DNA of 64,000 bases from Psammoneis japonica (lineage: Eukaryota), in contig QPGO01000193.1 in the NCBI GenBank assembly GCA_008632985.1, positions 1-64,000 on the forward strand. The letters run 5' to 3'. The notes under the pieces were generated by a model. It saw nothing but the letters and a program-made list of their open reading frames with translations, did no database searches and was not told the origin of the DNA. Positions 25,131 to 57,208 of the stretch are shown here, one piece after another. Each line of letters starts with the position of its first letter. Within the stretch, counting starts at the first letter, position 1. Made by a program: the position numbers and the translations under genes.

Positions 25131-27217
25131 GTCTCCTCGTTGCCTGTTGCACCCAGCTCTTCGTTGTGTTTGCGTTTTCCACTCAAACTGTGAAATGGAA
25201 AGCTGTGACCGGCAGCTGGCCAGAGCAGTTCATTTGTGGACAAGGTTCTTGTGTTGCGGTTGACTCGACTGAACAATCACCACTTCTTGAAACCCATGTA
25301 CGAACATTCGGGAACCGGTCTCACAAAGCAGATCGGCAGCATTTCTGAGTGGAGGAAGGAGACAACCACTCAACATCCCTCGAAGCTTCATTCTGCTCAG
25401 GGGTGCACTTGTCCATGCCATGACAGTTTGGATGAGCGGACGAGTTAGGACTTCCAGAACACATCCGGGTTCTTGCAAAATGCCTGTCACAATGGAAGCT
25501 TGACACAGGAACAACTGACAAGCCTTTTGTTCATCGTCGAGGCTCGTCACCACACTGTCAGAGAACCCTTGGCAAGGACTTAGTCTCCTTTGACAACCAT
25601 CGGGGATGATGCATCATTGCTGCTCCCAACTCTTGCTTTTGTCTCCATTTTGACCGACTGGGTTGCTCAGGAACAGAGCGCAGGCCTCGAATGATGACTC
25701 CACTCAGAGCCAAGTTTTTGGTCACTGGAAGCACCCAGTTGTGAAGAAGAGGTGCAGTGGCAGTTCAAGTCATTCATTGTGGAGATGCAAGAATGGTTGT
25801 CCATGCCATTGCCAGCGGGCTTTTTTCTGCTCAGCACCAGAAACCAGGGCTGACCATTTGTGGATCTTGACTGACATGTTCGCAGATGGCTCAATTTCCA
25901 GTGGGCTCCCAACAATGTGAACTCCAGTGCATTTGCCAGCATCTTCACCTTCAAGAAGGAATGGTGCCAAGGGATTTGTGACCTGGATTGTTCCAACTGG
26001 GATGTGGTTCAATGGGCAGACAATGGCACAGAAGTGGACCAAAAATGACGGCCATCATGACCGCCGGCTCCTGTCTGGCCCTCGCACTGTGATTTCCTTC
26101 CTGGTGCTGGTGCTGACAACTGACATCAGCGTGTGCTTTTTAAAACAATCACAGGAGAAAAGGGCAAAGGCAAGAGGATTTGATTTTTGGGATTTTCTGC
26201 TGCACCAGAAAGGTGCGGTGTGCTGCACGCCTCATCGCTGCTGGCAAAAAGCAGCGACATGAGGGTGGTGTGTTGTCACAATGTTTGTCATGCTGGTGAT
26301 CATGTGTCCTGGATTCTTTTGTCTTTGCAAACACTCAGTTTGTTGAGTTTGCAAGAGCACTCATTTGCAAAAGTCCCCCAGAACAGCCCTCGCTCATTTT
26401 CAAACCATCGCGGCAACAGAGAGCTCTGCGCTTTTTCTGCCAGTCACTTTTGATGTGTTCAACATCATTGAATGACTGAGACTTCATCCTGGGGGACTTT
26501 TTTACATGTTCACAACAGTGTGACATGTCATTGTGTCAAGCAGCCATTGCAAAGTCATCGTCAGAGAGGGTTGGAAAGTGTTTGTCATCGTCATCCGCTT
26601 CAAACGGCAACTTGTTGAGCAAATTGCACTCATGTGCACCACCAACGTTGTCTGTCCAAAATTTCAACACCACATTTGGTTTTGTCACTCACTTTTAAGC
26701 TGCTCGTAAATCAACACAAGCGCAAGAGTTCGCAGGTGACATCGCTCCCTCCAAGAGGAGGTGCAGCGAGTTGCGAGTTGGCGCAAAATAGTCACGAAGC
26801 ACCGGTTTCTGAAAATGTCAGCCTCACTCACACGCAAACTGTTGGGTCAAGTGAGTGTGGCACTTTTTTTCTTGTGACTGCGAAGAAGCTAATGACAGCC
26901 ACTTCCATAAGTCATTATATGAAGGTGTCAATAAATATTGTCAGACCGACAATGTCTTGACATTGGTTTTTTCTTCAATGACGCTCACTATCGAACAATG
27001 AGAACGACGAATGAATCCAGGGCTCCACGACTTGATGCTGCCACAACTATCTTGTTGATCTCTTGACACGCTTTTTCTCGATTCTTGATTGAGAAACGTC
27101 AAGATAAGGTAGTAGCTGGTGTGTTTTGGACGGGAGGATACGTCCACATAACGTGAGAAAAAAGAACAAAAAGGTTGAGGTGTTCCAAGAGTAGACAGCC
27201 ACTGCATTCAAAGCACA

Positions 27218-28039: not shown

Positions 28040-28907
28040 ATCCTTGATGAAAGAGTGCGTACGGAATCAATTGAATTATTTACATACTCATATTGCGTGT
28101 AATAAACTGCAGTTCCTCTGCGAAGGAATAGATACAAATTGTATAAGCGAATGATCATACAAAGGCTTTTAACTCCTTTGTGTTACACACCTTATATTGC
28201 AAGACCAAAAGGTGAAAGATTGCCTTCCGTTCGGATAGCATGCTCGAAGAAGCGATGTGATGAGAGAAAAGTTTGCGGCGTCTTCTAGTTTCGCAATGGA
28301 CTGCCCGTACCTGCGTAGCGATCTCTAGCAGTGTTGAAATGAACAAGGCAATCCTGGCGACGCAAGCTCCTTCACTGGTACCGACAGGTCGCGTTGCTTA
28401 GTGAATAAACTAGACGCTACGAGTATGAATGTTCCCGGTCGAATCGTTGAACTCGATAGCATCTAAGTGCGTAGACTAAAGTCTTGGGTGCTCATGAATG
28501 TTTTGACGACATCAACCACCATCGGAAGAGAGTTTTGATTTCGAGCTTTCCAAATTGTCTGAGGTCATTGCGGGTTTTTCAGAAATGTCCATCGAACATC
28601 CTCCAAACAGTATCATTTAACAACTGAAATACTTATCGGACATAATTCTCTTAGACGATAATTTATGCCATCCTGCCCTATAAATACTCAACTTATCCTG
28701 AACTATTGACGAAAACACTATCTTGTCTATCCTACAGGTATGCTGGTATTGGAAACAGTTATGAAGACAGTCATTGTCTGCTCACTTATCACAATAAATG
28801 TTGCTGGTGGAGCAACCTTGACCTCAGTCAAAGCACCCGTTCGCACACATCGCAGGAACTTCTCACTTTTTTGCAAACAGAGTTTCGGCAAAGGGTGCAA
28901 GAAGAAG

Positions 28908-29869
28908 ATGAAGTTCGCCTTTGGCTCGATCGTGAGCATTTGGTGCCTTGTGTCTGTCAACGGCCATGAGGACAGCCCAAAGTACGAAGATGCGCAGGAA
29001 GCTCTTGTCGACAGGCAGTTGTACCGGTACAAAAAAGCCACGCCTAAGCGTGGCGCGTGCTGCTTCTACTACGGAATCAAAGAGTGTCTCGTCCTCAGGC
29101 CTGGAAACTGCTGGAGGAGGGGAGGAAACTATGTAGGAAATGGAACTGAGTGTGCGCCCTACAACAAATGCCCTCATGTTCCGAAACGTACCCCGAAGCC
29201 TACGCCGTATCCTACCCCGAAGCCTGACAAGCCGTATTATTATAAGCCGAAGCCCACGCCATATCCAACCCCGAAGCCCACGCCATACCCAAAGAAGTAC
29301 CCAACTCCGAAGCCCACGCCTTACCCAACTCCGAAGCCCACGCCATACCCGACTCCGAAGCCCACGCCTTACCCTACTCCGAAGCCGACGCCATACCCAA
29401 CCCCGAAGCCCACGCCTTACCCACTCCGAAGCCGACGCCGTACCCTACCCCCAAGCCTTACAAGTACACTCCACCCCCAAAGCCCACTCCTTACCCTACC
29501 CCAAAGCCTTACAAGAAGTACTACCCAACCCCAAAGCCCACGCCTTATCCTACGCCGAAGCCTTACGATCCATACTATTATTACCCAAAGCCGATTGAAC
29601 TTCGAGGATCTTGTTGCTTTAAAGACGAGGGCAAATGCCTTAATCTCAAAAAGCAGCCATGCCTGCGCAAAGGAGGTCACTTTGGCGGTAAAGGCAATCT
29701 TTGTAGCGAGAAGACGTGCCCAGCTGCGTATGGAGCTTGCTGCAAGAAGGATGGCTCTTGCGTCGTGGTCAGGAAGAAGTTTTGCACCAAAGTTAAGGGA
29801 TACTTTGTTGGATTTGGCACCGTCTGCAAGAAGAACACGTGCCCCAAGTATAAGTATCCCTACTATTGA
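28908..29869 (+). CDS. Secreted extensin-like protein: (PTPKPTPY)n repeats flanked by three GA/SCC Cys modules; 1-nt frameshift at ~29421
   Basis: Signal peptide [19 protein letters not shown]. Repeats continue in the shifted frame after 29421, then [12 protein letters not shown]...CP and [11 protein letters not shown]...CPKYKYPYY, stop at 29869. Confidence 0.8.
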
Positions 29870-30430
29870 AGAGCATTCGAGATTGCTGGAGACCTTTTGA
29901 ATGCTCCACCTTAGGATATACGTATTGCATTTTCGAAGCGTACAGCCATTGTTTCATCTCGTGGTGTGACCAATCACGAAACGGCTGTTGCTTTTGTAGG
30001 AAATGTAAATTGTGTTAGGTTCATGTTTTTGTTTGACACTTCGTTTCTTTGCAATAGATTCTTTCTTTCCAACAAGTTTTATGCCAAAACGATTGTGTCA
30101 AGTTCGCGCCTTTTGACAACTCATCTCTCTCTCTCTCTTTCCAGAATATGGTCAACCATTGCCAATAGATTTTTCTGTCTTGGTGACACGGTAAAGCGAA
30201 GGCTACTGTACTCTCTATTCTCTCTACTCTCTAGCTACTAGAGTCTTCCGGGTCCTTTTATTGTCCTGACGCAGGTCGGACGAGAAAGATCGCGATATTT
30301 TTTCACCCTCATTTTTTGTGCGTCGTTTCATCAGTGTTTTCTTTTGTTCTTTTGCTGTTGCGACACGTGCCTTCTAAAATTCGACACCAGCTGCTGCTCA
30401 TACTGTCAAGATAGATTCGTTTCGTTACCC

Positions 30431-32039: not shown

Positions 32040-32740
32040 TGACTAGCAATCACGTTTCCTCGTCTTATGCTCGCTTGACGCTGTTTGCCCACCCAATTTC
32101 CAAGGTTATTTCGTTCCTCTTTGTGCGAATATAATAGGTAACGCAATCTGTATTCTAGACGCTTTTCACGGCCGTGGTCAAGTTTCCCGTCCTTTCTACG
32201 ACGCATGGCCTGTACACACAAAATGACGAAAAGTACAGTGTTGCCGATGGGTGGTGATGAGCCTTCGTCAGGAGCTTCTAGCTGGAGTCTCTCCTTTGAG
32301 GAACGACTTGTCTGCCATTGATTCTGCTGTAACAACCGGTTCATCCATTCAAACTTTGGTTGTACAATGGGCACAGGAAAGACTGACACTCCATCAAATG
32401 ACACAGTCATGTGACACACATTTAACCTCAAGCATCAGGCTTTAATGCTTTGCTGATGCATGCCCATGGAGAGTCAAACTTTTGATGCAAGGAAAATGAA
32501 AAAGGTGGTTGCATTGTGTTTCAACAAGCAGAGCAAAAGGTGAACAGGTGTTTGCAAACCACAGAGATCAAATTTCCCAGCCTTTCTCATTGAACACATT
32601 GCATGCTTGCCCACCTCCTGAGATTCTTTCCACACCTTGCACATGCTCGCATGGAACTGTGCAATGTCCCTTGCATTTCTTGAGTCAAAGGAGAAGTCAA
32701 AACACACCATTTCCCACTGCACAGAGAACATGCGCACCAA
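32040..32740 (-). pseudogene. Scrambled helicase-associated (HA) domain fragments
   Basis: RRRKDGKLDHGREKRLE, EERNNLGNWVGKQRQ and ...MRKAGKFD fragments resembling the HA repeats at 6.6-7.8 kb. Confidence 0.55.
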
Positions 32741-32847
32741 ACAACATCAATTTTTCCAGTCATTTTTCTGGGTTGCTGTTTCTGGCTTCAAAATTGCACT
32801 GGGGGGCTCTGCACAGGGGCCAACAAGGAACAGTGTCACAAACACAA

Positions 32848-33232
32848 CATTTTTCCTTTTGTTTCAATCAAAAATGTTTTTCAAAGTGTGACAAGGCACT
32901 GGCATGTGCTGCGATGTTGCTGTTCATTGTTCCAAGTCAAAAATGGGGCAAATGAATCATCAGTGCAGACATTGTCTCCATGTTGTCACAGCATGTGTGT
33001 CGTCGTTCCAACACGGATTTTGTGCACCATGTTTGTGCACAAACAGCATTTTTCCTTTTGTTTCAGTCAAAATCATTTTTCAAAGTGTGACAATGCATTG
33101 GAATGTGCTGTGATGTTGCTGTTCATTGTTCCAAGTCAAAAATGTGGCAAATGAATCATCAGTGCGGACATTGTCTTCATGTCGTCACAGCGCGTGTGTC
33201 GTCATTCCACAACACGGATTTTGCACACCATG
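32848..33232. repeat. ~199-bp imperfect tandem duplication inside a TpA-depleted island
   Basis: catttttccttttgtttca...gatgttgctgttcattgttccaagtcaaaaatg...aacacggattttg..caccatg occurs at ~32848 and ~33047. Confidence 0.85.
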
Positions 33233-33776
33233 TCTTTTTGTGCAATTGCTCAAACTTGCCAAGTTTGAGCAAATGGTGGTGCAAGTTTGGGAGCTTGGGC
33301 AATTGCTCAAACTTTTGTCGTGGAAAAGCCGAGGCTGGAACGCTCAGTCATGGCCGCCAAATGTTGCTTGGTGTGGTGGTGTTTGCCAATGTCCATTGTG
33401 ACTGCACGCACATGTGCATTTGAGCAGTTTTCCCAAATGGTGCTGCCTCACACACTTGGAGAAGAGTGGCAACACATGCCCACAGGTGCCAGGTGATGCA
33501 AGCCAAAATTTGCACACTGTGAGGTGTTTTCACATCACTTGGCCTCACACCTCACACCTCTGCATTCTCTCTGAGTGCCACATGGACAAACTCTCCTGCC
33601 CTCAATTCTCAGCTCTCTGACAAAGCAAGAAGATTTTGCTGGTGTCTCACCTTGTCTTGGGACCCATGGGGTCTGCAACACACAGCTGCGCAGAACAACC
33701 AACCTCTCAATCGTCACACAGGCCCTGCCACTCTCTGCTCTCTGCCAGCTGGCAGCAGCCAGCTGCCAGAGCTCTG

Positions 33777-34764
33777 GTGTCTAGTCTGCCAGGTTTTTTC
33801 CTCAATTGAGGCAGCAAAAAGCACCTCAATTGAGGTGGTCAAAATGCACCGTGGACAGGAAATAACATGCTGTTTTGGCAAATGACACGACAGACGATGA
33901 TGTCAATTCCATTGCGCAAAGTGGTCTCCACAATGACAATGAAGCTGTTGCAACACTCGTTGCACCTTGCTTTGCATGCACAATGCGCTCGCCTGCACCA
34001 AATTTGAATCTTGATGTCCACAAATTAGCCACAAACGCGGGGTGCGAAAATGGCCCATCACATTCATAAAAACACTTTTGACACACTTTCAGCCACAGCA
34101 TCGTCTCGCATTCAACACATGTTGATGCATCTTGTGCTTGTCATTGTTGATTGTTGTGTTTTGGCGACATGAATTGGCACAAAGATTGTTGATCTCGGTC
34201 GTTTGTTGCGACAGCAATTCTGATGCTGCGATCGCAAATGATGGCCCCTGAAAGCTCCGCACACAACAGCGCACTTCTCTTTGTCACAAAGAAGACATCC
34301 TGCTGTGCATGCAGCATGTGTTTGCCATCGTTGCAGACCCGAATTTTTGAGGTGCCATTTTTTGCATTTTGCGCTTGACCCCTTTTTTTTCGACTGTCAG
34401 CTCGATTTCGAGACTCGGACTGCCATGACAAGGTCTTCCTTGTTGTGTTGCACGATTCTGTTTAAAGGTAGATTGTTGAGAGAGTCCCAGAGTTTGTAGA
34501 ACGGCGGTCGCATCATCGTCAAAGTGCCAAAATTCGCGCACATTTGGCATGCGCATGTTTGCATGCCAACAAGTGAAGAAGAAAATGTGCTGTCGAGTGC
34601 GAACAAAGAGCCCAACTGTTGCCCCAAGAGGTTTTAAAGCATGGAGAACAACATTCTAGTGTCACTTAGGGGCTACAACGGTTTTAGCGATTTAGCGAGG
34701 GGGGTCGAAAAACTACCTCAATTGAGGTTTTTACCTCAATTGAGGTGCTTGGTAGACTAGACAC
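33777..34764. mobile_element. Non-autonomous TIR DNA transposon (~1 kb) with paired palindromic subterminal motifs
   Basis: Left gtgtctagtctgccagg vs reverse complement of the right end gtgtctagtctaccaag. CCTCAATTGAGG palindrome twice at each end (33800, 33824, 34716, 34734). Flanked by TG (left) and TA (right). Confidence 0.8.
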
Positions 34765-35173
34765 TAGTTGAAGGTTTCAGTCTTGCGAGATGAACGTTCT
34801 TTGAGATTCCTACGTAAAACACTCATATATTTAGTAGCGTAGTATGTATGTACGTGATTTCCTGTAGCTTGGTCACTGGAGCTGCTGACCCAAGACTGCG
34901 GCATGATGTAAAAATCAAGAGTCCTAAATCGTCAAGAAAACACCGACTTCACCATCACTTCCAACTTCTTCCAAAAAGAACTGCAAAAGAACAAAAGAAA
35001 GTGTTCCTCTTTGTACATTAACAAAGACACTTGAGGTGAGTGCGTCTTGATTGTTTCTTGATTCTGAGTTTTTGTGATCAAAGAGGAGGTGCGAAATACG
35101 AAACGCACTCAGTCGTGCTCTCCCGTGCTTTCTCGTATCTTTTCTACACGAGCAGAAACGTGCCAGAAACACA

Positions 35174-36927: not shown

Positions 36928-37545
36928 GATATTGTAGTGACACATGGTTAGTTTTGTGATAATTACTTACATAATACGCACTTCAATACAACAGCACTCA
37001 CCTGATTAGCAGCAACCGCCGATCTTAGGGAAGGAAAAGTTGCTATAGCTAGTGCCCATAGGCCGCAAAAAGAGCTAGCTTTGGCTCTCTACTCTAGAGC
37101 TTATGGCCCTGTGGAATCATAACACGCCCGGGGCTAACTAGCAGGTACCGGTAGCAACTAGCTACTCTCTAATAGCTAGACTCTAGAGAAAGAGAGAGTG
37201 CTCCTTCGAGTTCAAAGCTCGACAACGATTGATCGGATGAGTTGTCTCTACTATTCTTGGGAGAATCATTGATTTCTTAGGAATCATTGGGGCAAAGGAG
37301 GACATAAATGATATTGCCGTAAAGAGCTATTTATGTGGACCCCGAATCCGCTGTCCTGTCAACAGCAGGTCGCATTCGTATGGAGGGAGCTTTCTCCATC
37401 CAGTTAGCAGATAAGAGTATACGGAGAGAGCACAATGTCTCTGCCATTAGCATTAAGTCTAAGCCAATTGGTATGTTTTTGTGTGCCCTAGTAGGTCAAT
37501 CGTGTTACTGCCCTTTCTATTTGATCACATAGCAATAACGAGAAT

Positions 37546-38781
37546 TTAAAGATTAAAATGTTTTGTTAGCACGGTACGCACGAGACCCTTGCCTCGAACA
37601 ATGTCGCCGTGGGCAGGAATGATTGTCTCCACATCCCATCCGCCATTGCAAACAAAGTTTGCAATATCTCGAAACTCGTCTCGTTTGGGCTCTTGAACCA
37701 TTAGATTCATGTAAAAGGGTCGAAACACCTTGTCCATTCCAACCTTCCACAATCTGAAAAACAAGAAGCAACGTGGCAGACATAATTTGAGACATCTACT
37801 CCAGCGGCAGAAACCCAGCAAGTCGTTCTCATTTGTGTTGTTTTCTTACCTCGATCCCAACGGAACTTTCTCTACTGCTGGAGCGAGCTCCCACACTCCC
37901 AGGTCTTGCTGTTTCTCCTGCCCAAAATCATTAAAATTCGAGTTGGTAACGCCGTCTCCCTTTGGATAGTTCCAGTACAGGTCGGTAGTGATTAAAGTCT
38001 TGGACGGCTTATGGTAAAATATAACTTCGTTGAAGAAAGGCTTTCCTGTAAACGGATTAACTTCACAATCAACGTGCAGTGGTTGTATTTCGCTTGTATC
38101 CCAGAAACCTTCTGGAAGTGAAGGCGCCGAATACTCTCCATTTGCCCACGAATCGGGGCGAACACCAAACGGCACTTCACCATCCCACCGTACTTGTGAT
38201 TCACGCTCTGCTAGACCAGGACAACCCCACATTTTCGCTTCCGGATAAGCGTCTGCCCATTGCGATGCAAACTTGACGTGTTCATAATTGGGACTCACAA
38301 CGTGCCTCACGGTTCCCAGTTGATCCATGGCTTGTTGCAAGGGTCCATCGAGTGCCACGGGAGAATGGACCCAAATCTCATCATTTTTGCCGGAAACAAT
38401 GACAGTCATGCGACAACCGACATCGATATTGTTCCAGAGAAAGGGTCGATCTGCCGTGTACACACCGGGTATCGATGCCGGTGTCAGTACGGTTCCCAAG
38501 CGATTGGACCACCCCCGAGCCGAATACGTGCCCACATTTTTATCGTCAGCCAAGGAGGAATCTAGGGATTTTGCCTTTTGAATCAGGGCTTGTCGTGTGG
38601 ATATTGGAAACACATAATCTTCGACATCTTGACCTGACATATGCAACCCAAGCGATTTAGCCGAAGTCTGTTGTTGATGGCTCTGCTGCAGAGTGACACT
38701 ACTTGCTATCCAGCCAAAACAAGAGAGTGGCAATAAAAGAACTGGCAGAAACGCGAAATGGCACTTGCTCCAACACATCAT
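37546..38781 (-). CDS. DUF4336 family protein (metallo-beta-lactamase-like fold); exons 38781-37850 and 37753-37546
   Basis: RMTVI, WVHSPVAL, LGTVRHVVSPNYEH, WADAYPEA, EVIFYHKPSKTLITTD, IIPAHGD; 96-bp GTAAG..CAG intron; N-terminal signal. Confidence 0.88.
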
Positions 38782-39089
38782 ATCTAACTTCAGTAACAGA
38801 CTGCATCGCAATGAAAGATGCTGATGACGATGAGATGATACGATTGCGATGCTATGACACGAAATTGTACGGAATCGAAATAAAGCCCTACAGACATGAA
38901 GGAAATTCAATGAAACGCGTCAGCAGGAGCATAAGTAGTTTTTGGCGGGAAATCCCCATGGCACCGCAGTAGAAAGGGCCCACAACATGACGGCCGGGTG
39001 GACCGGCTGTTTGGTCTAGCTCTCTAGCTAGAGGGGGTTTACGGCAGGCTTTAGTTCGAGGCGGTCCTACAATCTCTTAGTTCTTTTAA

Positions 39090-41420
<2,331 letters not shown>

Positions 41421-41992
41421 TCTCTCTACTCTCTAGCTAGAGAGAGTAGCTCTACTCTAGAGTAGCTCTCTGCTAGCTAGAGTGGCTGCCGGTAGAGCCA
41501 CTGCCACTCTACAGCAGAGAGAGTAGAGAGAGCTTAGGAGTCGCTGGCCGGGGCGCCACGACCACGACCCACGACCCGCCAAGACCCACGACTGTCCAAA
41601 CGCGCACTAACACGACACATAAAAATCCAAAAACAACACAACAAAAAACAAATAAAAACACAAAACATGATGCCGATGCCGCATTGCATACACATAGCAT
41701 GTTGCAACTACAAGTGTTCTTACAAGGTTCCAGTACAGTTGTGAACCTTCTTAAAATCCACACCAAAGTCAAAGCACCATTCTCGTGTTTTCCAGAACGC
41801 CCGCTGCAGCCACGGATTCGTCCAGTTGCTGTACCATAACCATTCGTGCACCAAATCATAGTACCTCTTTCACCGACGCAGCAGTGTCGGAATTTGGTAT
41901 CATTCTGTCTCCAACAGCACTCCCCCATATTTGAACAACTGATGAGTTGCCTACAGGATAAAAAGCAAGTAGCATAAGAAGAATCAGAAACC

Positions 41993-43341
41993 ATGGCGCG
42001 TCCCGGAGGAACCATTGTCAAAATTTCCGGATTGAATCCGGTGGATGACCCGAAGTATCGATACGAAATGCCCTGTGTCTATGGAAAGATCGAGGGCCGC
42101 GGAAACGGGATCAAGACGGTCATCCCAAACATTTCGAAAGTGGCTCTCAGTCTTCATCGTCAACCCGGTGAAGTCAACAAGTTCTTTGGATGCAATCTCG
42201 GAGCTCAAACGACCTACAACGCTGACACGGATCGTGCGGTCGTCAACGGGGCGCACACGGATGCTGTGCTGCAGAACTTGATTCACCGATATGTGGAAGT
42301 CTTTGTACTATGCCCCAACTGTGGTCTCCCGGAAACGGACTACAAGATCAAGAGCGAGATTATCTACCACAAGTGTGCTGCTTGTGGATCAAAGGAGATG
42401 GTGGATATGCGCCACAAACTTTGTACCTACATTCTCGCTCATCATAAAAAGGCCAAGACAGAGGTCAAATCGAGTGACAAGAAGGGAAAAAAGGACAAGG
42501 ACGACAAAAAGAAGAAGAAGAAGAAGAAGAAAAAGGAGGGAAGCGACGATGAGAGAAAGGAAAAGAAAAAGAAAGACAAGAAGAAGGACAAGAAAGAAAA
42601 GAAAAAGGGAAAGAATGACAAGTCGAAAGACGATCATTTAGAGGACGCTGTGTCTGAACAGAAGTCTGAAGAATTCGATGACGCAGACGACGTATCGGTT
42701 GGATCGCATGAGGATGATGCGGATGCCTTGGGTACGTTTTGTATAGCGAAGAGAAACGCATTCAATTGAGTATAGTCATGTTGCCAATAACACCACTGCG
42801 ACTCTTTCCCCTTTTTCTTTCATCTCACTGTTTCTTACCTGCTCGCTCCCTTCCGTACTCAGCGCTTGCTGTTGAAGCCACACGGAAGTATCTTCAGGAT
42901 CATCCTGATGCTGGCGCCGAGGAAATTGCTGAACTTGTTACTAACCAGCAGCATGCTTCAGCTCTTAAATCACATGATAAGGTTCACATTATCACGCAGG
43001 CGGCTATTAGTCCCAACTTCTTCAAGGAGAGGGAAATTGAGAAGTATGCACCCGCTATTTCAGAAGTGACGAATGGCAACTGCATCTTGGAAAGGCATCT
43101 TATTGCTGCTCTTGAAGGGCTGTGCGTCTCGAAACCCAAGAACTTCCCTGTCATGCTCAAGCAGATGTATGACGAGGATGCCTTGGAGGAAGACAGTATC
43201 CTTGAATGGGCTGGAGAGGGAAGGAGTGCGTACACGTCGGACACCGTCGATGAGGAGACCAGGGCTGTTCTCCGCGGTTTGGCTGAGCCGGTCGTGGTCT
43301 GGCTACAGGAGGCCGACAGTGACGATGACGATGGATGGTGA
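41993..43341 (+). CDS. eIF5: Eukaryotic translation initiation factor 5; exons 41993-42731 and 42863-43341
   Basis: DDPKYRYEMP, KIEGRGNGIKT, FFGCNLGAQT, VNGAH, FVLCPNCGLPET, CAACG; Lys-rich linker; W2 domain MLKQMYDEDALEEDSILEW; 131-bp GT..AG intron. Confidence 0.95.
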
Positions 43342-43578
43342 TGATTCTTCAGAGTAAAGTGGCATTTTGGAGGTTTCTGTTGAGGGTCAGACCAGGCATT
43401 CAATGCACAGCACATGGTGATAAAGTAGGACGTCTTCGAGCAACTGTTGTGACAGCCTGTTGTCCGCTAGTCTACAGTAAACTGTATTCGCTGCAACGTT
43501 GTAGCACATTTAAGATTTGCTCCATTCGTTCGAGAGATGCCGTCAGCTGCAGAAACCGCAGGCAGAACAAGAGCAAAG

Positions 43579-44199
43579 TCGATGTTGTTCCAGAGAAAGG
43601 GTCGATCTGCCGTGTACACACCGGGTATCGATGCCGGTGTCAGCACGGTCCCCAAGCGATGGGACCACCCACGAGCCGAATACGCACCCACATTTTTATC
43701 TTTAGCCAAGGAGGAATCCAATGACTTTGCCTTTTGAATCAGGGCTTGTCGTGTGGATATTGGAAATACACAATCTTCAACATCTGGACTTGACATATGC
43801 AACCCAAGCTATTTAGGCGCAGTCGGTTGTTGTTGATGGCTCTTCATCAGAGTGGCACTACTTGCTATCCAACCAAAACAAGAGAGTGGCAATAAAACAA
43901 CTGGCAGAAACGACAAATGACACTTGCTCCAACACATGTCTACACTCTTTAGTGAGAGACTGCTGAGTTATGGCTAGAATACTACAATGGGCTGACGATG
44001 GGAGCATCAATGAAATGAGAGAGATGCGGATCAGATGGCACGAAATCTAATGTGTACGGGATGAAATGTGGACCTACAGACATGCAGGAAATTGAATGAA
44101 ACGCGTCAGCAGGGGCATAAGCAATTTTTGGCGGGAAAGGTATGTTGTAAGGCTCTACTTAGTAGTATGGTAGAGTTCAAGGCTGCCCTACAATCTCTT
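43579..44199 (-). pseudogene. Truncated duplicate of the 5' part and upstream region of the DUF4336 gene
   Basis: Aligns to ~38423-39080 (FPISTRQALIQKAKSLDSSLA...GVYTADRPFLWNNID); similarity ends abruptly after NNID. Confidence 0.88.
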
Positions 44200-44302
44200 A
44201 CTCGAGTAGTTCGTTTAATTGGCGCAACTGGAAAACACACGGGGGTTGCACTCTGCAGTACGAAGTTAATCCGCACCTGGCATCTGTGTCAACCGACTCT
44301 AC

Positions 44303-46324
44303 TCACGTCTCGACATTTTGTGGTGTTTCTTCTTCGGCAACATCGCTGGTGCTGGCATTAAATGCTCCTCCCTCGTTATCATTCGTGTCGCTGTTGTTAC
44401 GTTGCTGTCGACGCCGTTCTTCATGCTGTCGTAGGATACGAAACAAGTTGACAACCTCTTGATGAAATTCTTCTCGACCAAACGCTTGACCTGGAGGGCC
44501 CGAGAAGTGCGTTCCCAAGCGTCGACGATTGCTGGCGGGTGCCGCGGCGGGATGCTGCTCACCTGGTTGTTGGCTCCCATCGCCATCAGTAGCAAGGGAC
44601 GACGGAATGTCTGTTCGACAGACGGGACAGGTCCGAGCCTGCCGCAACCATTCTTGACAACAAAGCTTGTGGAAAACGTGGTCGCAAGCTGTCGCTACAA
44701 TCACTTCGCCATCGCAGAAATCACCCATACAGATACAGCATTCCCGTGGATATTCGTCTGGGAATTCTTCCAGCATTACCACTCGGAGCTGATCAATGCA
44801 GCCCGGAGGAGCACCGGAATTGCTGTACGCTACGGGGAAAACATTTCCAAAAGCACCCATGGCTGTCACACCAGGACCACCACCCGTAATGCCTCCTTCG
44901 CCATCGCTTGCTGGGTTGTAACCATTCCATGTTAGCAAAATGGCAACAAAGCAGAACGGAACCAGATAACCGAGTACAATAATGGACCAAGCCGAAATGG
45001 ACAAAATCACAAAAACCGTGCTGGCATTGAAGAGTTGTGGCGCAGTCTCGGGACAAGTGGCGTCTTCGCTGAAAAACACACTCCGTACACCCAATCGCAA
45101 CACCAGCATGGCATATGTCAGGTACGCAATGTTGTACACAATGACTCGAACCGGAATCCTCTCTCTGGAATTTGTGTCCCACCGAAAGACGACTCTCATG
45201 ATATCCGTCCGGAATACATCCAAAATGAGTTGAAACGTCGCCAACCAAAAGTACGCCTTGAGTCCCACATCACAGTCCTTGTCAATCGAAACGACATAGG
45301 CACTCGTCAGAACCACCCAGCACACCAAAATGGCAAACAGCAACAGACTGAATATCAATGCAACGAGCGTAATTATGAGTTGAAACCTTCGATTGATGCG
45401 GATCCAACGAGCTCGAGCTTGTCGATTCGGGTCGGGATCGGCCTGTTGTTCTGGATCCACAAGGCTGTCATTGTCCTCCGAATCGTCAACGCTGGAGGAT
45501 CCTCTTGATAGTTGTATGGAACCAACTCGCTCTGCATCTCCCCCCGCCGCTTCGGTTGACCCATCACCGTCGGTTGTTCGTTGCGTCATTTCAATCGACC
45601 ACGCAAAGGGTGGTTGGGAAGCAGTCGAGTGAAAAATGGAGGATGACAAGGCTGCCGCTTGCAAGTGACCAGAAGAAGACGAAGTCGTTGTGGATAATTC
45701 ATTGCTACGTGGAGCTCCGCCACTCCCGGGCGCTGCGGCGTTTCGTCGTCGTAGCACGTTTCGATCAAAAAAGAAATCGCGTAAACGATTCCCATCGGGT
45801 TCCGACAAGGACCGTTGTCGTCGTTCATCCACCACCTCTTGTACAACGGGTAGTTGCGCGGCGGATCGAAAATAGGTGGGTTCCGTCACGGAGGAATCAT
45901 CATAATGACGCAGTAGCTCTCCGGCATGGGCCAAGGCAAACAAATCTTCGTCACCCAATTGCAAGGCTGACGAGGAATCTCCACCGCCGCCACCATGTTG
46001 GCTTTGCCATCGCCGAGCGGCACGTGAAGAACGAGAAGAGGACGACTGTGCTTGATTATTTTGACCCCGTGTCCGAACCCATCTCCGTACAGCCGCCATG
46101 CCGGAATCCAACGATGCTCGTAAACGTCGATCATTGTTTGTTGCGCTGTTGCTATTACTACTAGCACGTGCTTCATTTTCTTCTTCTGTAATGGAGGATA
46201 CTCGTTCTGAGCTGGAACGACGAGATCGCAAAGATGACGTTGTGGAGGAAGAGGAGGACGATCGACTCTGTCGGTGATGGTGCAGCCGTCGTCGCGATGG
46301 TCGTCTCCGTCGATTATTGGACAT
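44303..46324 (-). CDS. Transmembrane RING-H2 E3 ubiquitin ligase
   Basis: Four hydrophobic segments, then CCICMGDF...CDHVFHKLCCQEWL...CPVCR (C3H2C3). Confidence 0.9.
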   Translation of the reverse strand: MSNNRRRRPSRRRLHHHRQSRSSSSSSTTSSLRSRRSSSERVSSITEEENEARASSNSNSATNNDRRLRASLDSGMAAVRRWVRTRGQNNQAQSSSSRSSRAARRWQSQHGGGGGDSSSALQLGDEDLFALAHAGELLRHYDDSSVTEPTYFRSAAQLPVVQEVVDERRQRSLSEPDGNRLRDFFFDRNVLRRRNAAAPGSGGAPRSNELSTTTSSSSGHLQAAALSSSIFHSTASQPPFAWSIEMTQRTTDGDGSTEAAGGDAERVGSIQLSRGSSSVDDSEDNDSLVDPEQQADPDPNRQARARWIRINRRFQLIITLVALIFSLLLFAILVCWVVLTSAYVVSIDKDCDVGLKAYFWLATFQLILDVFRTDIMRVVFRWDTNSRERIPVRVIVYNIAYLTYAMLVLRLGVRSVFFSEDATCPETAPQLFNASTVFVILSISAWSIIVLGYLVPFCFVAILLTWNGYNPASDGEGGITGGGPGVTAMGAFGNVFPVAYSNSGAPPGCIDQLRVVMLEEFPDEYPRECCICMGDFCDGEVIVATACDHVFHKLCCQEWLRQARTCPVCRTDIPSSLATDGDGSQQPGEQHPAAAPASNRRRLGTHFSGPPGQAFGREEFHQEVVNLFRILRQHEERRRQQRNNSDTNDNEGGAFNASTSDVAEEETPQNVET

Positions 46325-47746
46325 GCCACCAGCCCGCCGACGAAGACGAAGTACTGGTGGATCTTATGGATTCATTCATTTCTGAACGCGTTTCAGGTGG
46401 GTTCTCCTCGAGGAAGAGCCCACTAAGGCTTGAAACGAGGAAGTTGGTACCAACTCTGTAGAATTATCTGCTGCTCCATTGTCTGCCAGCACCGATTCCA
46501 AGTTACCACCACTCGTCGGTTCTGCTTCTTCTCTGTTGTCGTCTTGTTGACTGTATTGTTGTGTATAACTGTAATAATAGTGAGCATCATCCGGCACTTG
46601 TTGCCGTGTGGGTCGGTTAAACAATAAGGAGGAACGAGATTGTCTTTTTGGCTTGGGTTGTCGTCGCAGTGGGTCATCCTCTGTGTTATCCTTGTGTTCA
46701 GACGCAAACACTTGTGATTGTGCATCAGTCTCAGTGGCGGCTGTTCCCTTGAGTAACGCGGTGGCTGCCGCCGCTTCGCCAAGGACGATACACTGCTACT
46801 CCCACCGACGCTGGAATCATGAACGGCGGGTTCGACAAAATCATTGTCATCCAACAAGAGAGCGTCCGTAGTAGTATTTGTTGTCGTAGTATTTTCTTTT
46901 TTGCAGTCATGTCCCAATTACAAACATTGTAATTGTATTCACTGGATGGATGTTGTGGTGGAGCGATTCCTTGTAATGGTTGTTGTTGTGATTCGGGTAG
47001 TTCTGGAGAAGAACACGATTCAACGGTTCTTGTTGTTGTAGTAGTAGCAAGCATGGCTGTAGCCGCAGCAGCTTCTGCCAAAAGTGAGGATGCTCTTCCG
47101 CTTGTCGACGCAGATTGTTCTGCCGCGTGTCCCACCATGTCCCAATTGGTGTCATAATCAAAAGGAGACAATTCCGGTGTACGTTCTTGTTCCTCCATAA
47201 TATTGCCTTCTCCTCCTTGTGTAGTAGTATCATTTTGATTTAAATCTACAGATTGCAAATCATCCGAGAAATGTTCATCCTCATCCTCTTGCTGTTGCTG
47301 GCTTATTGCGCTACTCGGTCTGGATGATGATGATACAATTACATTTCTTCTTAGCAGAGACGAGGATGGCTCTAGTTCCGTCGATGGCTCTGTTGTTGTT
47401 ACAACACCGCCTTGATGATTTTCTTCTTGTTGCTGTTGTTCATCTTCCTCATTTGCCAATAATATCGTTCCAACAATTGTAGTATTGTCGGATTCCAAAA
47501 TTTCATTTTCAAGAGACAAAGAACAAGTAGGTCGTTCTTCTTCATCAGAAATAAACACGGCGCATGCATCGTCCTCGCTCTTGCGTGCAACAATACCCAC
47601 ACGGCCCGTCGTTTCTACTGAATCCATACTTTCCACAGAATCCATCACTACTATATCGTCGCAAGATGATGCAAGGGACTGGCACCGACACGACGAGAAT
47701 CATCCGTGTCCGATTGTTGTTGTGGCTGCTGCTGCGAATTATTCAT
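46325..47746 (-). other. Probable low-complexity N-terminal extension of the RING-H2 gene (or a separate gene) broken by several frameshifts
   Basis: S/T/Q/E/D-rich protein-like text switches frame several times between the ATG at 47746 and 46324, with no evident introns. Confidence 0.45.
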
Positions 47747-48873
47747 AATTCTTGTTTTTCCTTATAGCAACGCCGATGCTGTGTATTTTAATTTCTGAAT
47801 CGATACACCATGGATTTTTTATGCACAAATCAATACTTGTTAACGTATAGTGACTGGTATTCTTTGGACTGTCGCATCAATCAACACTTCTATGCCTCTC
47901 CTATTCTCCTTCGGCTTTTGATGCCAGTTTTCAAGTATTTTTGCTGTGTATTGAAACGCGAAACGCGAGTGAAATGCGGTGATCTCTCCCCCTTTGCGCG
48001 GAAAAGACCAATGTAAGACCGTGCTGTACTAGTGAGACTACGTAGAATCGACATTTTGATTATTTGACTGTATTCAATGTTTAAATACAAGATTTAAAAT
48101 GACACTACAAGTATTCGGACTGGAAGATGTTCATTAGTGGCACGTGTCCGTTCCAAGGATAGCTCGTGATTTCGATTTCCTCTCACAAAATTGCTTGCTG
48201 TGTCTGGCTCACTTTTTCATTACCCGCTCTTCTTCTGTTTAGGACTAGAGATTGAGAGACATGACTCTTTGGGTGACACAAGGTGCCCTTGGAAGAACAA
48301 TGGCCTCTTTGCCTTCTTGTTGTTGTTGCTGTCACCCCAGCAGTTGTTCACCTTCTGTGCATGTGCAAAGGAAACAGACAGACACGTTGCAAACTCAAAA
48401 CTTGCCATGTGAACCGCATGAAAGTGGAACAAAAGCAGCAGAAATAGCTGAAGTCGAACAGAGAGCCTCTAGAGAGCTACTAGTAGAGAGGTCCGACAGG
48501 TCGTCGCCAGCTATGATGCGCAAATCGATGGATAGACAGACAGACAGCATGCGCGCACGCAAAAAAGTTGCGCGCCATCTTTTTTTGGACCACGGTATTG
48601 ATTATTTTATGTATCTATAAAAATAATACAAAAAGGTCACTATCGTAAGAAATGAACAATTAGAGAGTAATATGATAGCTTCATATTTATAGGTTCGATA
48701 AAGTTGAAAAAATCGCTCACGGGAAACACCCCAAAAGCAAGATAGCGCCTGTTGACACTGTTGCCTTGTTGTTTATTGTTGTTGTAATCGTCGAGTTGAT
48801 AACTGCAACGCATCTTGCAAAGCACCCCTATCAACTCTTCTTATAGCTTTCCCTAGTTGTTGTCTATGAAACG

Positions 48874-51419
48874 ATGAAGTTTAAAATCCGCAGCAAAGAA
48901 AAAGACCATAAAAGCAACAGGAACGACGATGAGTTGGCATCTCCTGAAGCCACCGTAGCTTCAGCAGTAGAAGAATCGACAGTAGTAACTCCCTATCAAT
49001 CCTATCAAGATCCGTTGGAACAACCCCAACAACAACCACAGTCTAGTAATCAAACTCAACCCGATAGTCCTGTCAATGGCCATCATGATGATGATTATGT
49101 TCCTCATGATAACGATCAAGATCAAGAGGACGCCGAACACTTGCGTCGTAAGCACCGTGGCTTTTCGACCTCGATTGCCGATTCCTTTGTATGGCAAGAT
49201 TACGAGAGAGTCGATTGCTGTGCCATGACGTGTTTTGGTATTCTCCAAAGTGACCGTGATCGCTACCTATTGACGGGAACCATGCCACCCTCGTTAGTAC
49301 GCCGCTTGTGGATTCATTCGGGATTTCCTTTATTGATCTTTTTAACGGCTGGCTATTGTGCCTTTACCATTCCCAATGCGTATTGGAATCAAATGTGTGT
49401 ACGTTTTGGTGACGTTTATCGTCGTGTATATGATTTTGCAGTGTTTCAAGGGACGTTGGAAACGTTCGAGAGTACGACAAGAGCTCCTGTGGAAACTCCA
49501 TCAAGCGAGACGTGACCATCCACAGCCGGACTTTGAATACACGGAAATGGAAGATGACGGTAATCCTACCGGTGCTCAGCAACAACAACCACAAGTCCCA
49601 TCCTCATCACGCGATTACATGAATGGTCAAACCTATTATGATGTTGGTTGTGCTCATCGTTTGTTGGGTTGTTATGCCAGTGATGTTCCGTCTCACCCCG
49701 AAACACAAGAATACAATAATTTCTGTGCCTGTCTTTGGCAAGTATTCCAAAAATCCTGTTGTGGCAAACTCTGTGGTTGTCATTTACAACTCTGTGGTCA
49801 ATGTGCTTTGGCACAAGAAGGACGAGAATTGGAACGTATCTTGCCCGCCAGCATGAGACGGATTGATTACATTACCATGCAACCCGTCATGGAATATTAT
49901 CCACGCATTTTGCAATTGCGTCTTGACCAAAATTTTGGAATCAAGGCACATTACCAAGCGACATCGAAATTGGCACGCATACTCCTTCTTCACACGTCGG
50001 CCGTGCTCCTTGCCGCGTTGATTTTGAGTTTGTTGCCATTTCTACGCAATTTTGGTATTCGCAATTTCTTGGTACTCTTGGCGACGATTGGACAAGCACT
50101 GGTGCTGTTATATGTGGTGTATTGGCACTGGCATCGATTCCACTTGTCCTTGGATGCCGTCATCAAGTACTTTGCTTCTGGCTTTTTGTTGTCGTCGTCC
50201 TTGGCCATTACATGGGAATTACTCTGTGCGCTCGTCCTTCGACTTCTTGTGGAGGTTGGCATGGCATTGTCGGGTATTGATGAAACGGATGAAAACGGGT
50301 ATGGCAATAGTATTATGAATCACGGTGAGGAAGTTCCATTGCCGGAAATGGGTGGACGTATTCGTATGGACGACAATCATGGCAGTAATCGATTCTTGCA
50401 AAATGATTTTGCCAGTGCTTCGGTACATGATTACATGATTGAATTGGGACGTGATTACTTTTTAGTGTATGCACTCTTTTTGATTGTACAATCCTTCTTG
50501 ATGGCAGCCATGATTGAAGAATTGTGCAAATATTTTGGATATCGCATGGTGGATCATGCCGATTTCTTATCGACACGAGAACTTGCCAAGGCGGCGGATG
50601 CGCCGCAGTACGTTATTGGTAATGACGACGATGATGTCGAAACCAACGCCATGGATGATGCTGCACAGCACGTCATGACGACAGTCGATGATGCCGTCAT
50701 GTCCTTGGCGTCGGGTGATGAATTACACGAAAACAACAAGATGGGTTTGACGGAATTGTTGTCAAGTACCAAAGGTCGTTCTCGACGAGACATGGCTGCG
50801 GCACATACGATTGCCATGGTGGCAACGGCGATTGGATTTGCGTGTTGTGAGAACTTAATCTATGTCTTTGTGTACAATGGACAAAGCCTTCAATCACGTG
50901 AGTATTATTGGAAAAGAGGGTTTTGTTTTGTGTTTTGTGAGTTTGGTATTTTGACTGACGACTTTTTCTCTCTGGATTCATTTTCAACTGAATACAGAAA
51001 TCATGGTACTGGTTAGCCGCGCACTACTCCCGGTCCATCCCATTGCGGCGGCACTCCAGAGCATTGGCGTTTGTCGACGCGTCGTAGAACACGACAAGAC
51101 GATGCGATTGGGCAAAATGATTCTACCCGCCGTCCTGTTTCACGGGACCTTTGATTACGGATTGTTAATGTTGGACTTTTGGAACGGCATGGGCGATAAG
51201 GATGCAGCCGATTCGGCCGCCAAGGAAGCGCTCGTGGCGGGCTTGTCCTTTTGCTATGCCCTCTTTTGCATCATGGGAGCGCTCGTGTATTATTACAAGC
51301 AAAGCATTGAACAACGCCAACGACTGGATGCATTGGATCAAAACGACAATAGTACGCAAGCTGCTGCGGCCGAGGTGGCTAGCGTCAAGAGTGACGATTT
51401 GGCCAGGATTCTCAGTTAG
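48874..51419 (+). CDS. PLAC8-like Cys-rich domain fused to a PrsW-family intramembrane metalloprotease; frameshift at ~49397, intron 50898-50997
   Basis: PrsW motifs IEELCK, GFACCEN, PVH and LFHGTFD. PLAC8-like FSTSIADSF...CCAMTC and CGQCALAQEGREL. A 100-bp GTGAGT..CAG intron restores the frame. Confidence 0.82.
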
Positions 51420-53868: not shown

Positions 53869-54432
53869 AATGTGATGTTATTTGCGTGGCTACTTGTTGG
53901 TAGAGAGACTTGCATAACTCATGCTGTGCATGATAATGTTGTGTAAATGAGAGAAATTATGTAAGCAACCCAGTTTATCTTTTCTGAATAGGCATCGGAG
54001 CTCATGCAACACCGTATCTTTTACGTGATGTCTGCCTACGTGAGACAACTTTCACGCAGCTCCGAGACTGTAGCTTTCTCGTCATTTTCGATCAGTCAAT
54101 GCTCTTGCCTTTCAAAACATCCAGTTGAACATATCTCAAAATGTGATGACTGAAAAGGGGAAAGCTATTACTTCGCAAGCTCCCGGTATAAAAGGTTATC
54201 AGACTACCGTGTCTGGGAAATCCAACAACATATTTACTAGGACAGTAGCAATAAGCACGGTGCTCTAGTGAAGAAGGAAAGTGAGCGGAGGATCTCAGAG
54301 AAATCCAAGCACTGTCTACATGCACTGATGTCTTCCCACCATGGTTTTCAACCATTTCATTGCAACTGTTTTTAGGCGCTGGCACCAACACGTACCCACG
54401 TACTTTGCCCGGTGGAAGATGAATGACAAGCA

Positions 54433-57208
54433 TCAGTTGCTTTGTTGTCGAACGCTCCACCGAACGCCAATGTCATCCAAACGTTTCTTGTGGTCTCGTT
54501 TAAGTGTCGCCGTTTTCCTCAACCTGTGCTGCCAACTTAACCACAACCCAAGATTCTTTCCATCCTCTGTGTGCTTCTGTGGAACGTTGCAATCCCCTTC
54601 GCGTTTCTCATGTTGGATGAGAAGACGAAACATTTCTTCCCATCTTTCAGAAGGAACATTCCAAGCAACGCCAACGTTTGTGAGCCATTCCTCAAGAGCA
54701 CTGTCGAGCTTCCCGGCATTCCTCAAAAACCGCTGCCGATGTGACCACTTTCCAAGGTTCTTTCCATCCTCAACATGGCTGTCTCGAATGTTGCAATCCC
54801 CCACGCAATCTTCACAGTGGACGAGGAGTCGAAACATTGCTTCCCAACGTTCAGAAGCAACCTTCCAAGAAACGCCAACATTGTTGAGCCGTTGCTCAAG
54901 ACCACTGTTGAGCTTTCCGGCATTCCTGGAAGCACGCTGATTTTTTAACCAACTTTCAAGGTTCTTTCCATCCTCTTTGTGCTTTTTGCAATGCGGCAAT
55001 CACCCTCTTGTTTCTTACATTGGAGGAGGAGTCGAAACATTGCTTCCCATTCTTCAGAAAGAACATCCCAAGCAACGTTAATGTTTTTGAGCCGTTCCTC
55101 GTGAACTCGGTCAAGCTGCCCAGAATTTTTCAAAAATCGCTGCCTGCATGACCACGCTCCAAGGTTCTTTCCATCCTCGACATGTCGTTGTGGAACATGA
55201 CAATCACCTTCTCTTTCTTCACAGACCAAAAGCAATTCACACATTTGATCCCAAAAGCTTTCACGGTTCTTGCACTCCGTGATTGCTCGATTCATGATGT
55301 CGTTCTTCAATTCAAGCGGCATTGAGTCTGGGAGCATGAACGATTCAAGCACCCGAGAAGGGAATTCTGCATCACACAAAGACCTTCCGAGTCTGGCGCT
55401 CTCATCAATTACAAACACGACATCCTCCCACAATTTGGGATCCAATCCAACCATTGCATCGAATGCCAATGTGAAAGATTCATAGCCACCTTCATCTTCC
55501 ACAAATCCAAGTGTCTCCAGTTGTGGGTGAGGGTGCCAAAACATGTCCACGCTCTTTGCCAGGAGCCCTCCGGCTGACACGTCCAATCATTTGGCGCGTC
55601 AACGGCACTTCGGACAGGATCTGCCATCACTGCCAACTCCCAATCTGCCTCGTCCATGCCGGTGGCCAATGCTCCACAGTTGGCAACAATCGATTTGGTT
55701 GCTCATTTTGCTCTTGACAAGATTTCTTCCCGCTTGGCAGGTGACATGTCAGAGCTGCCACTGACCGCAAATGCGGTGATGTCGTCCTTCTTGAGAACTG
55801 GTGCTGCATCACGCACAAAAGCACGAGCACAGCAGTTCATGGAATGGAATGACATGGTGCTGCTCACATTGAGTTTGTGAAAAGCTGCTTGAATTGCAAA
55901 TGGGAGCAGGCAGTCCTTCGAGAGTGCCGGCGGGATGGAATCATCAAGGAGCGGATCAGCAAGGACGGCGTTGATTTTGTCGGCATCCAACACACAAAGT
56001 GTGATTGGAACGGTGACATTTTGGTTCACGGCATCACTCAGCGTCCGTTTCGCAAGGCATGGTCCAAACAAGGTTGCATTGTTAAAACTGCGGACACCAG
56101 CAGCCTTTTTGGGCTCTGAGCTTTTGTTGGGAATGAGCGTTCACGAGCCATCCTTACAAAGCTTGCCACCGACAATGGCAACCTGCTGTGGAGTGTCCGT
56201 GTGCCGACATGGAGCAGCAGTTAGAAACAAGTGACAATCAACTGGGATCAACGAGTCACAGAGACCATGTCCAGACATTTTGCCGATCCCTTCCATTTCA
56301 TGTGCCTCATCAAATGCGGCAAACCCAATGGCACCAACGTGCTTCGACAGCGCCTCTCCAACCTCAGGCAACGACTTGCAAGTGCAGCCAATGAAGGATG
56401 AGCCGTCATTTTTTGAGGATGGAAATGCAGCAATCTCGTCAGAAGATGTTGTGCAATCCTCAGTGCGATTGGTCTGGCTCGCCACAATCAATCGCGAATG
56501 AGGCACATGATCAAGGACTCCAAATCGATCCAAGCCATCCAGCACTTGATCCACGAGTTTCAAAGTTGGTGTGACACACATGGCTGATTGAAGCATTTCT
56601 CTGCTCGGACCCATTCCGTCCATGGCAAAGTTTTTGATCGACTTGAGTGCAGGCAGTGTTTTGCCCCACCCCGGCGGAAGCTGGACGTTGGCCCGGCGAC
56701 CACCTTCTGCCCTTCGAGATTTCTTGTTGTTGTGAGCATTCTTTCTGCTTTTTCCTCCATCCACCTGTGCAGGAGCTCTGCAAAAGCACTCTGCAGTCGA
56801 ATCTAAAATGTCATTGTGACGATCATCTTGCTGTTGACACTCGTCTTGATAATTTTCTGACACACTCGCACTTGTTTCTGATGCTGTTTTCTCTGCTGCT
56901 CTCAAGTGATCTCCTTGTTCTCGACATCCTTTTGTCGGATGAGCTCTGTGATCATCATGCTTCTGACTTGTGTCCTCCAGGATTGCTCCAACCCTCACTG
57001 CATCGACTGCTGCATCATTCAGAACCTCAACTGCTGCATGCGCGCTTGTCTGATGCTTGGGCGCTGTCGTCACTCTTGAACGGCTTCTAAATTGTGCGGA
57101 TTGAAACTGAAAAGACCCGCTGAACTGCTCCAGCATCAAAACAAGGAAAATGTGGTGGCAGTTGTTCATGGTTGGTGTGTGTGATTGAAGGCACTGTCGC
57201 GCTGTCCC
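54433..57208 (-). pseudogene. Decayed SF2 helicase + HA repeats, copy 2 (inverted relative to copy 1)
   Basis: Colinear with 4661-7440 starting at gggacagcgc; LPPGWGKT, FDEAH, EDEGGYESFTLAF, four HA repeats. Confidence 0.9.

Follow-up and report, generated by a model that had tools for sequence, protein, structure and literature searches.

Dispersed CTAG-rich palindromic tracts in diatom-like intergenic DNA and their relation to TA-depleted islands

In the 64,000-nt stretch of DNA that was analyzed here as a whole (hereafter, the window), clusters of the words CTCTA, TAGAG and CTAG occur in excess over chance and in intergenic positions; pieces of them are dispersed elsewhere in the genome, and copies with erased TA steps lie inside TA-depleted islands. 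The reading that we favor, and that we hold to have about even chances of being right, is that the clusters belong to a class of cryptically simple CT/AG-TA tracts which is dispersed, prone to form palindromes and native to intergenic DNA, with a source in slippage and template switching. The first-pass annotation, which had noticed CTAG-rich palindromic clusters, was partly confirmed in this observation.

The window is eukaryotic and diatom-like, with long ORFs that are almost without introns and with ORF family matches to GAF-HisKA-receiver, helicase + HA domain, GT90, eIF5, DUF4336, RING and DAGK; a tRNA search of the window returned none and an Rfam search no family. TA is under-represented throughout (TA O/E 0.39 across the window), and a two-state HMM called six TA-depletion islands, with TA O/E of 0.02-0.08 and CG also lowered:

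4715-7449, TA-depleted island
17730-18670, TA-depleted island
19444-26695, TA-depleted island
32444-34462, TA-depleted island
39088-41426, TA-depleted island flanked by the clusters C4 and C5 (listed below), TA O/E 0.02 with 3 TA in 2339 nt, CG O/E 0.25
54402-64000, TA-depleted island

In the islands next to clusters TA has been lost and CA and TG have been gained, a signature like that of the TpA-to-TpG/CpA hypermutation that integrated viral DNA undergoes in Bigelowiella natans (bioRxiv 10.64898/2026.01.13.699255); in the text of that paper the words boundary, border, palindrome and CTAG are absent. The clusters are targets or bystanders of the TA-erasing mutation, not components of that process. 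Pfam gave no match for the three longest ORFs of island 39088-41426 (those scanned, of 289, 406 and 311 aa), and neither terminal repeats of this island nor a second copy of it within the window were found. The same island contains a perfect (AC)231 of 462 nt at 40578-41039, immediately preceded by an N at 40577, which may represent an erased (TA)n, a genuine CA repeat or filler from the assembly. Elsewhere, an inverted duplication (4661-7440/54448-57208, 84% identity over 2.8 kb) bears a helicase + HA-domain gene; since both copies are TA-erased islands, gene duplicates are targeted and not just transposons.

The clusters were defined by a rule in which hits of CTCTA, TAGAG and CTAG were joined across gaps of up to 25 nt and at least four hits were required. 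This rule returned six clusters, spanning 30.2-48.5 kb of the window:

30213-30243, unstranded, C1: about 190 nt 5′ of the first ATG of a DAGK-like ORF, 2.2 kb (2201 nt) from the nearest island edge
37075-37099, unstranded, C2: between convergent 3′ ends
37138-37188, unstranded, C3: between convergent 3′ ends, with 9 TA and 4 CTAG
39016-39033, unstranded, C4: CTAGCTCTCTAGCTAGAG, 55 nt outside the left edge of island 39088-41426 and some 235 nt 5′ of the first ATG of a minus-strand DUF4336 gene
41424-41528 (word cluster; whole stretch 41420-41532), unstranded, C5: the largest, 113 nt with 12 TA and 5 CTAG, in the region upstream of eIF5 and about 465 nt 5′ of the first ATG of the following ORF
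48467-48488, unstranded, C6: about 390 nt upstream of an ORF starting at 48874, 5.9 kb (5914 nt) from the nearest island edge

The number expected per window was 0.13 under an order-1 and 0.2 under an order-3 Markov model (60 simulations each), and no simulated cluster had more than 4 hits, against 15 word hits in C5. The whole window holds 157 cluster words, and CTAG overall is not over-represented (85 sites, 5% of TA contexts), so that the clustering alone is unusual; the tracts are conspicuous because the remaining genome is TA-poor. The 12-mer CTCTAGCTAGAG quoted by the first-pass annotation stands at 41431-41442 and at 39022-39033 (expectation from 100 shuffles, 0.01), and the quoted string CTACTCTAGAGTAG was found at 41452-41465. 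Among the similar clusters that had been listed, those at ~30201-30245, ~37040-37200 and ~48465-48490 pass the word rule and those at ~34750 and ~44150 fail it; the supposed cluster at 34750-34770 is where an inverted-repeat element, described below, ends on the right.

The tracts consist of CT runs and AG runs that meet at TA, usually in the order CT-rich arm, one or more CTAG, AG-rich arm, which gives nested palindromes, and they range in length from 18 to ~500 nt when the window is taken together with one environmental locus (L002). The 12-mer CTCTAGCTAGAG is the 8-mer CTCTAGAG with its central CTAG doubled, and the window holds five copies of the latter and, of the former, two intact and one erased. 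The half-sites CTCTAG/CTAGAG stand in inverted order only, twice at spacing 0 and once at spacing 3, or overlapped as CTCTAGAG, and the window contains 0 pairs in direct or everted order. A 14-mer, CTCTCTAGCTAGAG, is common to C4 and C5, and a 19-mer, TCTCTCTACTCTCTAGCTA, to C1 and C5. Weak periodicity was detected by TRF in three of the six clusters (periods 9 and 7 in C1, 14 in C3 and 11 in C6; scores 32-40), and C5 gave no TRF row despite its 16-nt direct repeats. The ends of C5 form a perfect 15-nt inverted repeat (41420-41434/41518-41532, 100%) around an interior that is a mosaic of 16-nt and 10-nt direct repeats and six inverted pairs. As single-stranded DNA this cluster folds at -33.8 kcal/mol (z -2.4; 3 of 200 shuffles fold equally well) and C4 reaches a z of -4.6 against its shuffles; C1, C2, C3 and C6 show no such advantage.

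Inside the islands the word rule was relaxed, so that TA, TG or CA was accepted at the TA place and at least six hits were required. The islands hold five such relaxed-word clusters, compared to 0.73 in 30 simulations, and two places deserve to be given individually:

33733-33777, unstranded, TA-erased cluster in island 32444-34462: CTCTCTGCTCTCTGCCAGCTGGCAG...CCAGAGCTCTGG, also given as CTCTCTGCTCTCTGCCAGCTGG...CCAGAGCTCTGG
19716-19727, unstranded, TA-erased copy of the 12-mer core: CTCTGGCTGGAG, in island 19444-26695, inside the relaxed-word cluster 19623-19727

When TG and CA are restored to TA, the sequence at 33733-33777 becomes a CTCTCTA/CTAG/TAGAG tract. The pattern CTCYRGCYRGAG has three matches in 64 kb, of which the one at 19716 is TA-erased, against 0.03 expected. 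The presence of TA-erased clusters inside the islands indicates that the mutator affects the tracts as it does other DNA and is not halted by them, and the erased copies are small internal records of the TA-to-TG/CA change.

For the dispersal of the tracts in this genome, contigs of two sequencing runs (X1 and X2) were aligned on 41040-49400. The depth of DNA contigs rises to 565-585 at 41432-41447, within C5, compared to ~60-70 for single contigs, and the contigs diverge into unlike sequence at 41422, 41442, 41443, 41462 and 41465. This raised depth, together with the contig breaks, indicates that pieces of C5 of 20-40 nt recur elsewhere in the genome. X2 leaves 41040-41597 (with C5) and 48015-48572 (with C6) uncovered, from which we conclude nothing; this run is labelled "DNA?" but may be RNA, since one of its contigs skips 42731-42861 with GT..AG ends, a segment that is probably an intron. 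One X1 contig links 41223 to 41701, its short side having just 26 letters, and in an X2 contig the 60 letters that precede 41701 are unlike; a second haplotype or paralogue without C5 may be represented here, on evidence too weak to use. The eIF5 region at 41701-43200 also occurs in a second, heavily substituted form (positions 42717-43146, for instance, hold 40 substitutions in 431 nt), with unlike sequence upstream of 41701; another haplotype or a paralogue may account for it.

The tracts were also found in environmental DNA. Metagenome contigs scanned for exact matches to the 18-mer common to C1 and C5 yielded 45 loci, 33 of them distinct, and 13 of the 33 carry at least three more cluster words within 60 nt, often the same palindrome, where ~0.3 would be expected at the word rate of the window. 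As only exact matches were collected, near-duplicates among the loci carry no information on variation. The adjoining genes belong to HSF, PPR, metacaspase, HAD and other eukaryotic families. Sixteen loci were examined (the 13 of cluster type and three others), and 0 lie inside an ORF of at least 120 aa; the nearest ORF end is an ATG in six, a stop in six, and four have no ORF of at least 120 aa. At L002, ~500 nt of CTA/TAG/CTAG sequence extend between an ORF of 122 aa on the minus strand, taken by us to be a gene, and a dehydrogenase gene on the plus strand; at L024 a (CT)n run is joined to the tract. Our literature search found no description of such tracts in diatoms.

A duplication within the window allowed two versions of the same upstream region to be compared. 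Copy A (38423-39079) and copy B (43579-44200) of a ~620-650-nt sequence are 82-92% identical, and copy A has an extra ~65-80 nt that hold C4 and are missing in copy B, which instead carries a different TA-rich run at 44139-44173. C4 is present in copy A only, and the comparison indicates that the tract region alters by indels. The duplication is partial: of the DUF4336 gene it comprises the 5′ part and the sequence upstream. Copy B lies between the eIF5 and RING genes, and copy A has its right breakpoint at the left side of island 39088-41426.

These properties agree with cryptically simple sequence, a class reportedly described by Tautz and colleagues in 1986, and with compound imperfect microsatellites. 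Like these, the tracts are scrambled from a few short motifs above chance frequency, non-coding and dispersed (as judged from the depth over C5, the 13 of 33 distinct loci and the 0 of 16 inside ORFs); weak periodicity, seen in three clusters, and indels between copies, seen in the one pair A and B, may be further points in common. The six clusters against 0.13-0.2 expected, the TRF periods in three of them, the repeats within C5, the shared 19-mer and 14-mer and the fact that copies A and B differ by indels exactly at C4 all speak for simple sequence. The tracts differ from it in being laid out consistently as palindromes, with a CTAG core between a CT arm and an AG arm, and in their exactly recurring 12-mer core. 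They belong to intergenic DNA here and in related environmental eukaryotes, by 5′ as well as 3′ gene ends. We suggest that they would grow and reshuffle via replication slippage, that intrastrand template switching would convert near-palindromes into palindromes, and that they would be largely neutral. The template-switching step has a model in the correction of quasi-palindromes by intrastrand template switching, which comes from the bacterial and yeast mutation literature. Such a correction would turn a CT run lying by an AG run into perfect nested palindromes as in C4 and C5; a difference is that four of the six clusters do not out-fold their shuffles, and no mutation event was seen here.

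Several observations stand against this reading. Simple slippage would yield direct repeats, whereas the half-sites occur in inverted order only. The exact 12-mer is present three times in 64 kb, once erased, against the 0.03 expected, and its recurrence could mark a selected site. Two clusters adjoin probable transposon DNA, which is more than neutrality needs. Finally, C4 and C5 alone out-fold their shuffles. The reading of the clusters as cryptically simple intergenic tracts includes that transposons land beside them, and one feature is of particular relevance here:

33778-34763 (with flanks 33774-34767), unstranded, inverted-repeat element of ~1 kb whose arms, 33778-33843 and 34707-34763, pair as reverse complements

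Each arm of its ~60-nt terminal repeats has two copies of the 12-nt palindrome CCTCAATTGAGG, whose four occurrences are confined to these arms. The left arm is TA-erased (TG where the other has TA) and the right arm intact, and the left end of the element adjoins the erased cluster 33733-33777. It is flanked by CTGG on the left, which reads back to CTAG, and by CTAG on the right, a candidate target-site duplication in which CTAG is indistinguishable from TA. A second element with terminal inverted repeats was observed at 18178-19495; its repeats are 26 nt long and 92% complementary, it spans two islands, and CTTGA flanks it on both sides as a candidate 5-bp target duplication.

The first-pass annotation had proposed, as an alternative to insulators, that the clusters are stacks of target-site duplications and excision footprints at transposon hot spots. 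Because the CTGG/CTAG-flanked element abuts an erased cluster, the hot-spot idea retains some support, and the right end of island 39088-41426 adjoins C5; on the other side, no footprint with letters of an element end was found in the clusters of the window, and three of the five cluster places (C2 and C3 joined) are without a nearby transposon. The earlier interpretation as a whole, insulator or transposon footprints, is thus partly supported. The 14-mers on either side of island 39088-41426 were also considered as a target-site duplication and rejected, because the left one ends at 39033 and does not abut the island, from which 54 nt of unmutated host DNA (39034-39087) separate it; positions 39053-39079 are shared with the paralogous copy at 44174-44200.

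In its most developed form the transposon explanation would make the tracts self-renewing landing pads, a possibility to which we assign a minor but real share of the probability. A cut-and-paste element that targets CTAG/TA would double CTAG on insertion and leave both copies on excision; the same tentative scheme would lead from CTCTAGAG to CTCTAG-CTAGAG and on to CTAG runs, the tract growing from its center and drawing more insertions. Its premise, which we regard as possible to the same limited degree, is that TA-dense tracts are the main targets for an element in a TA-poor genome. The element that borders the erased cluster 33733-33777 on the right, with its ~60-nt repeats and CTGG/CTAG flanks, and the contact between the right end of island 39088-41426 and C5 are consistent with this scheme. 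So are the presence of both the 8-mer and its CTAG-doubled form (five against two intact and one erased), the three occurrences of CTAGCTAG in the window and its 48 occurrences across the 33 distinct environmental loci, and the inverted-only half-sites, which fit growth from a palindromic center. On the other hand, a single element has a readable junction, where a duplication of CTAG and one of TA are inseparable; no cluster has element-end letters between its CTAG copies; and no transposon was found within 1.9 kb of C1, C2/C3 or C6, that is, at three of five cluster places or four of six clusters. Parts made of CT runs, such as CTCTCTACTCTCTA, are not accounted for by doubling of CTAG, slippage of a CTAG unit yields identical arrays, and island 39088-41426 has neither terminal repeats nor a recognizable protein.

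Among known cut-and-paste systems, hAT elements have 8-bp targets and leave hairpin footprints, and IS630 and Tc1/mariner elements insert at TA, IS630 at CTAG. The tracts resemble the targets and footprints of such systems in the one CTGG/CTAG-flanked element at a cluster margin and in the 12-mer being the 8-mer with a doubled CTAG; they differ in that neither an 8-bp duplication nor a transposase was found, nor a footprint with element letters. We know of no transposon superfamily with a CTAG duplication. It is doubtful, though still conceivable, that the tracts are landing pads that steer transposons and TA-erased islands to set intergenic spots, or else that CTCTAG-CTAGAG is a conserved site to which proteins bind in the intergenic DNA of diatoms.

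The more specific suggestion that CTCTAG-CTAGAG or CTCTAGAG is a cis-regulatory site in promoters of the diatom lineage, bound by a dimeric factor or excluding nucleosomes, we consider unlikely. The first-pass annotation had placed several clusters just upstream of genes, and this holds for C1, C4, C5 and C6, which lie 190-465 nt before a first ATG; C2 and C3 sit between convergent 3′ ends. In the environmental DNA one cluster occupies a 337-nt divergent gap (L035) and three are found 91-217 nt before an ATG (L042, L029 and L015), and the same palindromic core is present in several organisms, as a regulatory site might be. A promoter element would be expected at a fixed place relative to gene starts, but as many tracts face 3′ ends, with six ATG against six stops among the 16 environmental loci and the convergent position of C2/C3. 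In addition, the paralogous upstream region in copy B is without C4, tract length varies from 18 to ~500 nt, most gene upstream regions in the window have no cluster, and our literature search yielded no such diatom motif.

It is very improbable that C5, with its 113 nt, is a miniature foldback or inverted-repeat transposon (MITE). Its perfect 15-nt terminal inverted repeat and its fold (-33.8 kcal/mol, z -2.4, 3 of 200 shuffles as good) would suit such an element, but its flanks, GCAGA and CTTAG, differ and therefore form no target-site duplication, other genome contigs match only pieces of 20-40 nt and diverge on both sides, and the other five clusters share neither its ends nor its length.

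The clusters had also been described as lying at island borders and as possible boundary or insulator elements, which would protect genes from the spread of the TA-erasing mutation or of the chromatin guiding it. Clusters were found at two of the 11 HMM edges, both belonging to island 39088-41426: C5 begins at most 2 nt from its right edge and C4 is 55 nt from its left edge. The other nine edges have no cluster and, in the 150 nt outside them, 0-2 word hits; the edge at 34462 lies not at a cluster but inside the inverted-repeat element, a transposon whose intact end carries a CTAG run. The five cluster places are 2201, 1900, 55, 2 and 5914 nt from the nearest edge, so that four of the six clusters are 1.9-5.9 kb away from any island edge. 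When five places were put at random into the 14,453 free intergenic bases (20,000 trials), at least two fell within 100 nt of an edge in 4.1% of the trials, which favors a boundary; at least one did so in 31%, and the edge hits of C4 and C5 are the two sides of one island and hence a single event.

Insulators would be expected at most or all domain edges, compared to the two of 11 seen here, and should not be overrun by the process that they block, whereas the clusters at 33733-33777 and 19716-19727 have been erased inside islands. Moreover, the 13 environmental loci of cluster type have no TA-depleted flank (lowest O/E 0.41). GAGA/CT elements act as boundaries and promoter elements with the Drosophila GAGA factor and the plant BPC proteins; the tracts are like them in their GAGAG/CTCTC runs, in being intergenic and in that some adjoin a silent domain, and unlike them in having no general tie to domain edges and in being themselves mutated inside domains. 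We know of no GAGA- or BPC-like factor in diatoms. The boundary reading is thus largely refuted in this window, and we regard it as barely credible. If the clusters are cryptically simple intergenic tracts, C4 and C5 would stand beside one island because island 39088-41426 occupies an intergenic space between divergent genes that already held such tracts, and they would have been spared by the mutator because they lie outside the targeted DNA and not because they blocked it.

The finding is real but fairly ordinary, and its value is mostly negative: the sharp edges of TA-erased islands are not set by a sequence-encoded barrier. As the tracts do not set the edges, the limit of the mutator should be looked for in gene activity or chromatin and not in motifs. 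Should the tracts prove to be landing pads, the target choice of transposons would shape where mutated islands arise in a TA-poor genome. Two further repeats were observed in the window. A tandem duplication of ~605 nt, 97.5% identical, occupies 2086-3293 directly after a phytochrome-like ORF, and at 28740-29900 an ORF for a proline-, lysine- and tyrosine-rich protein contains a 12-nt periodic repeat (12 copies of an 84-nt register), with a TA O/E of 1.06 that we attribute to tyrosine codons.
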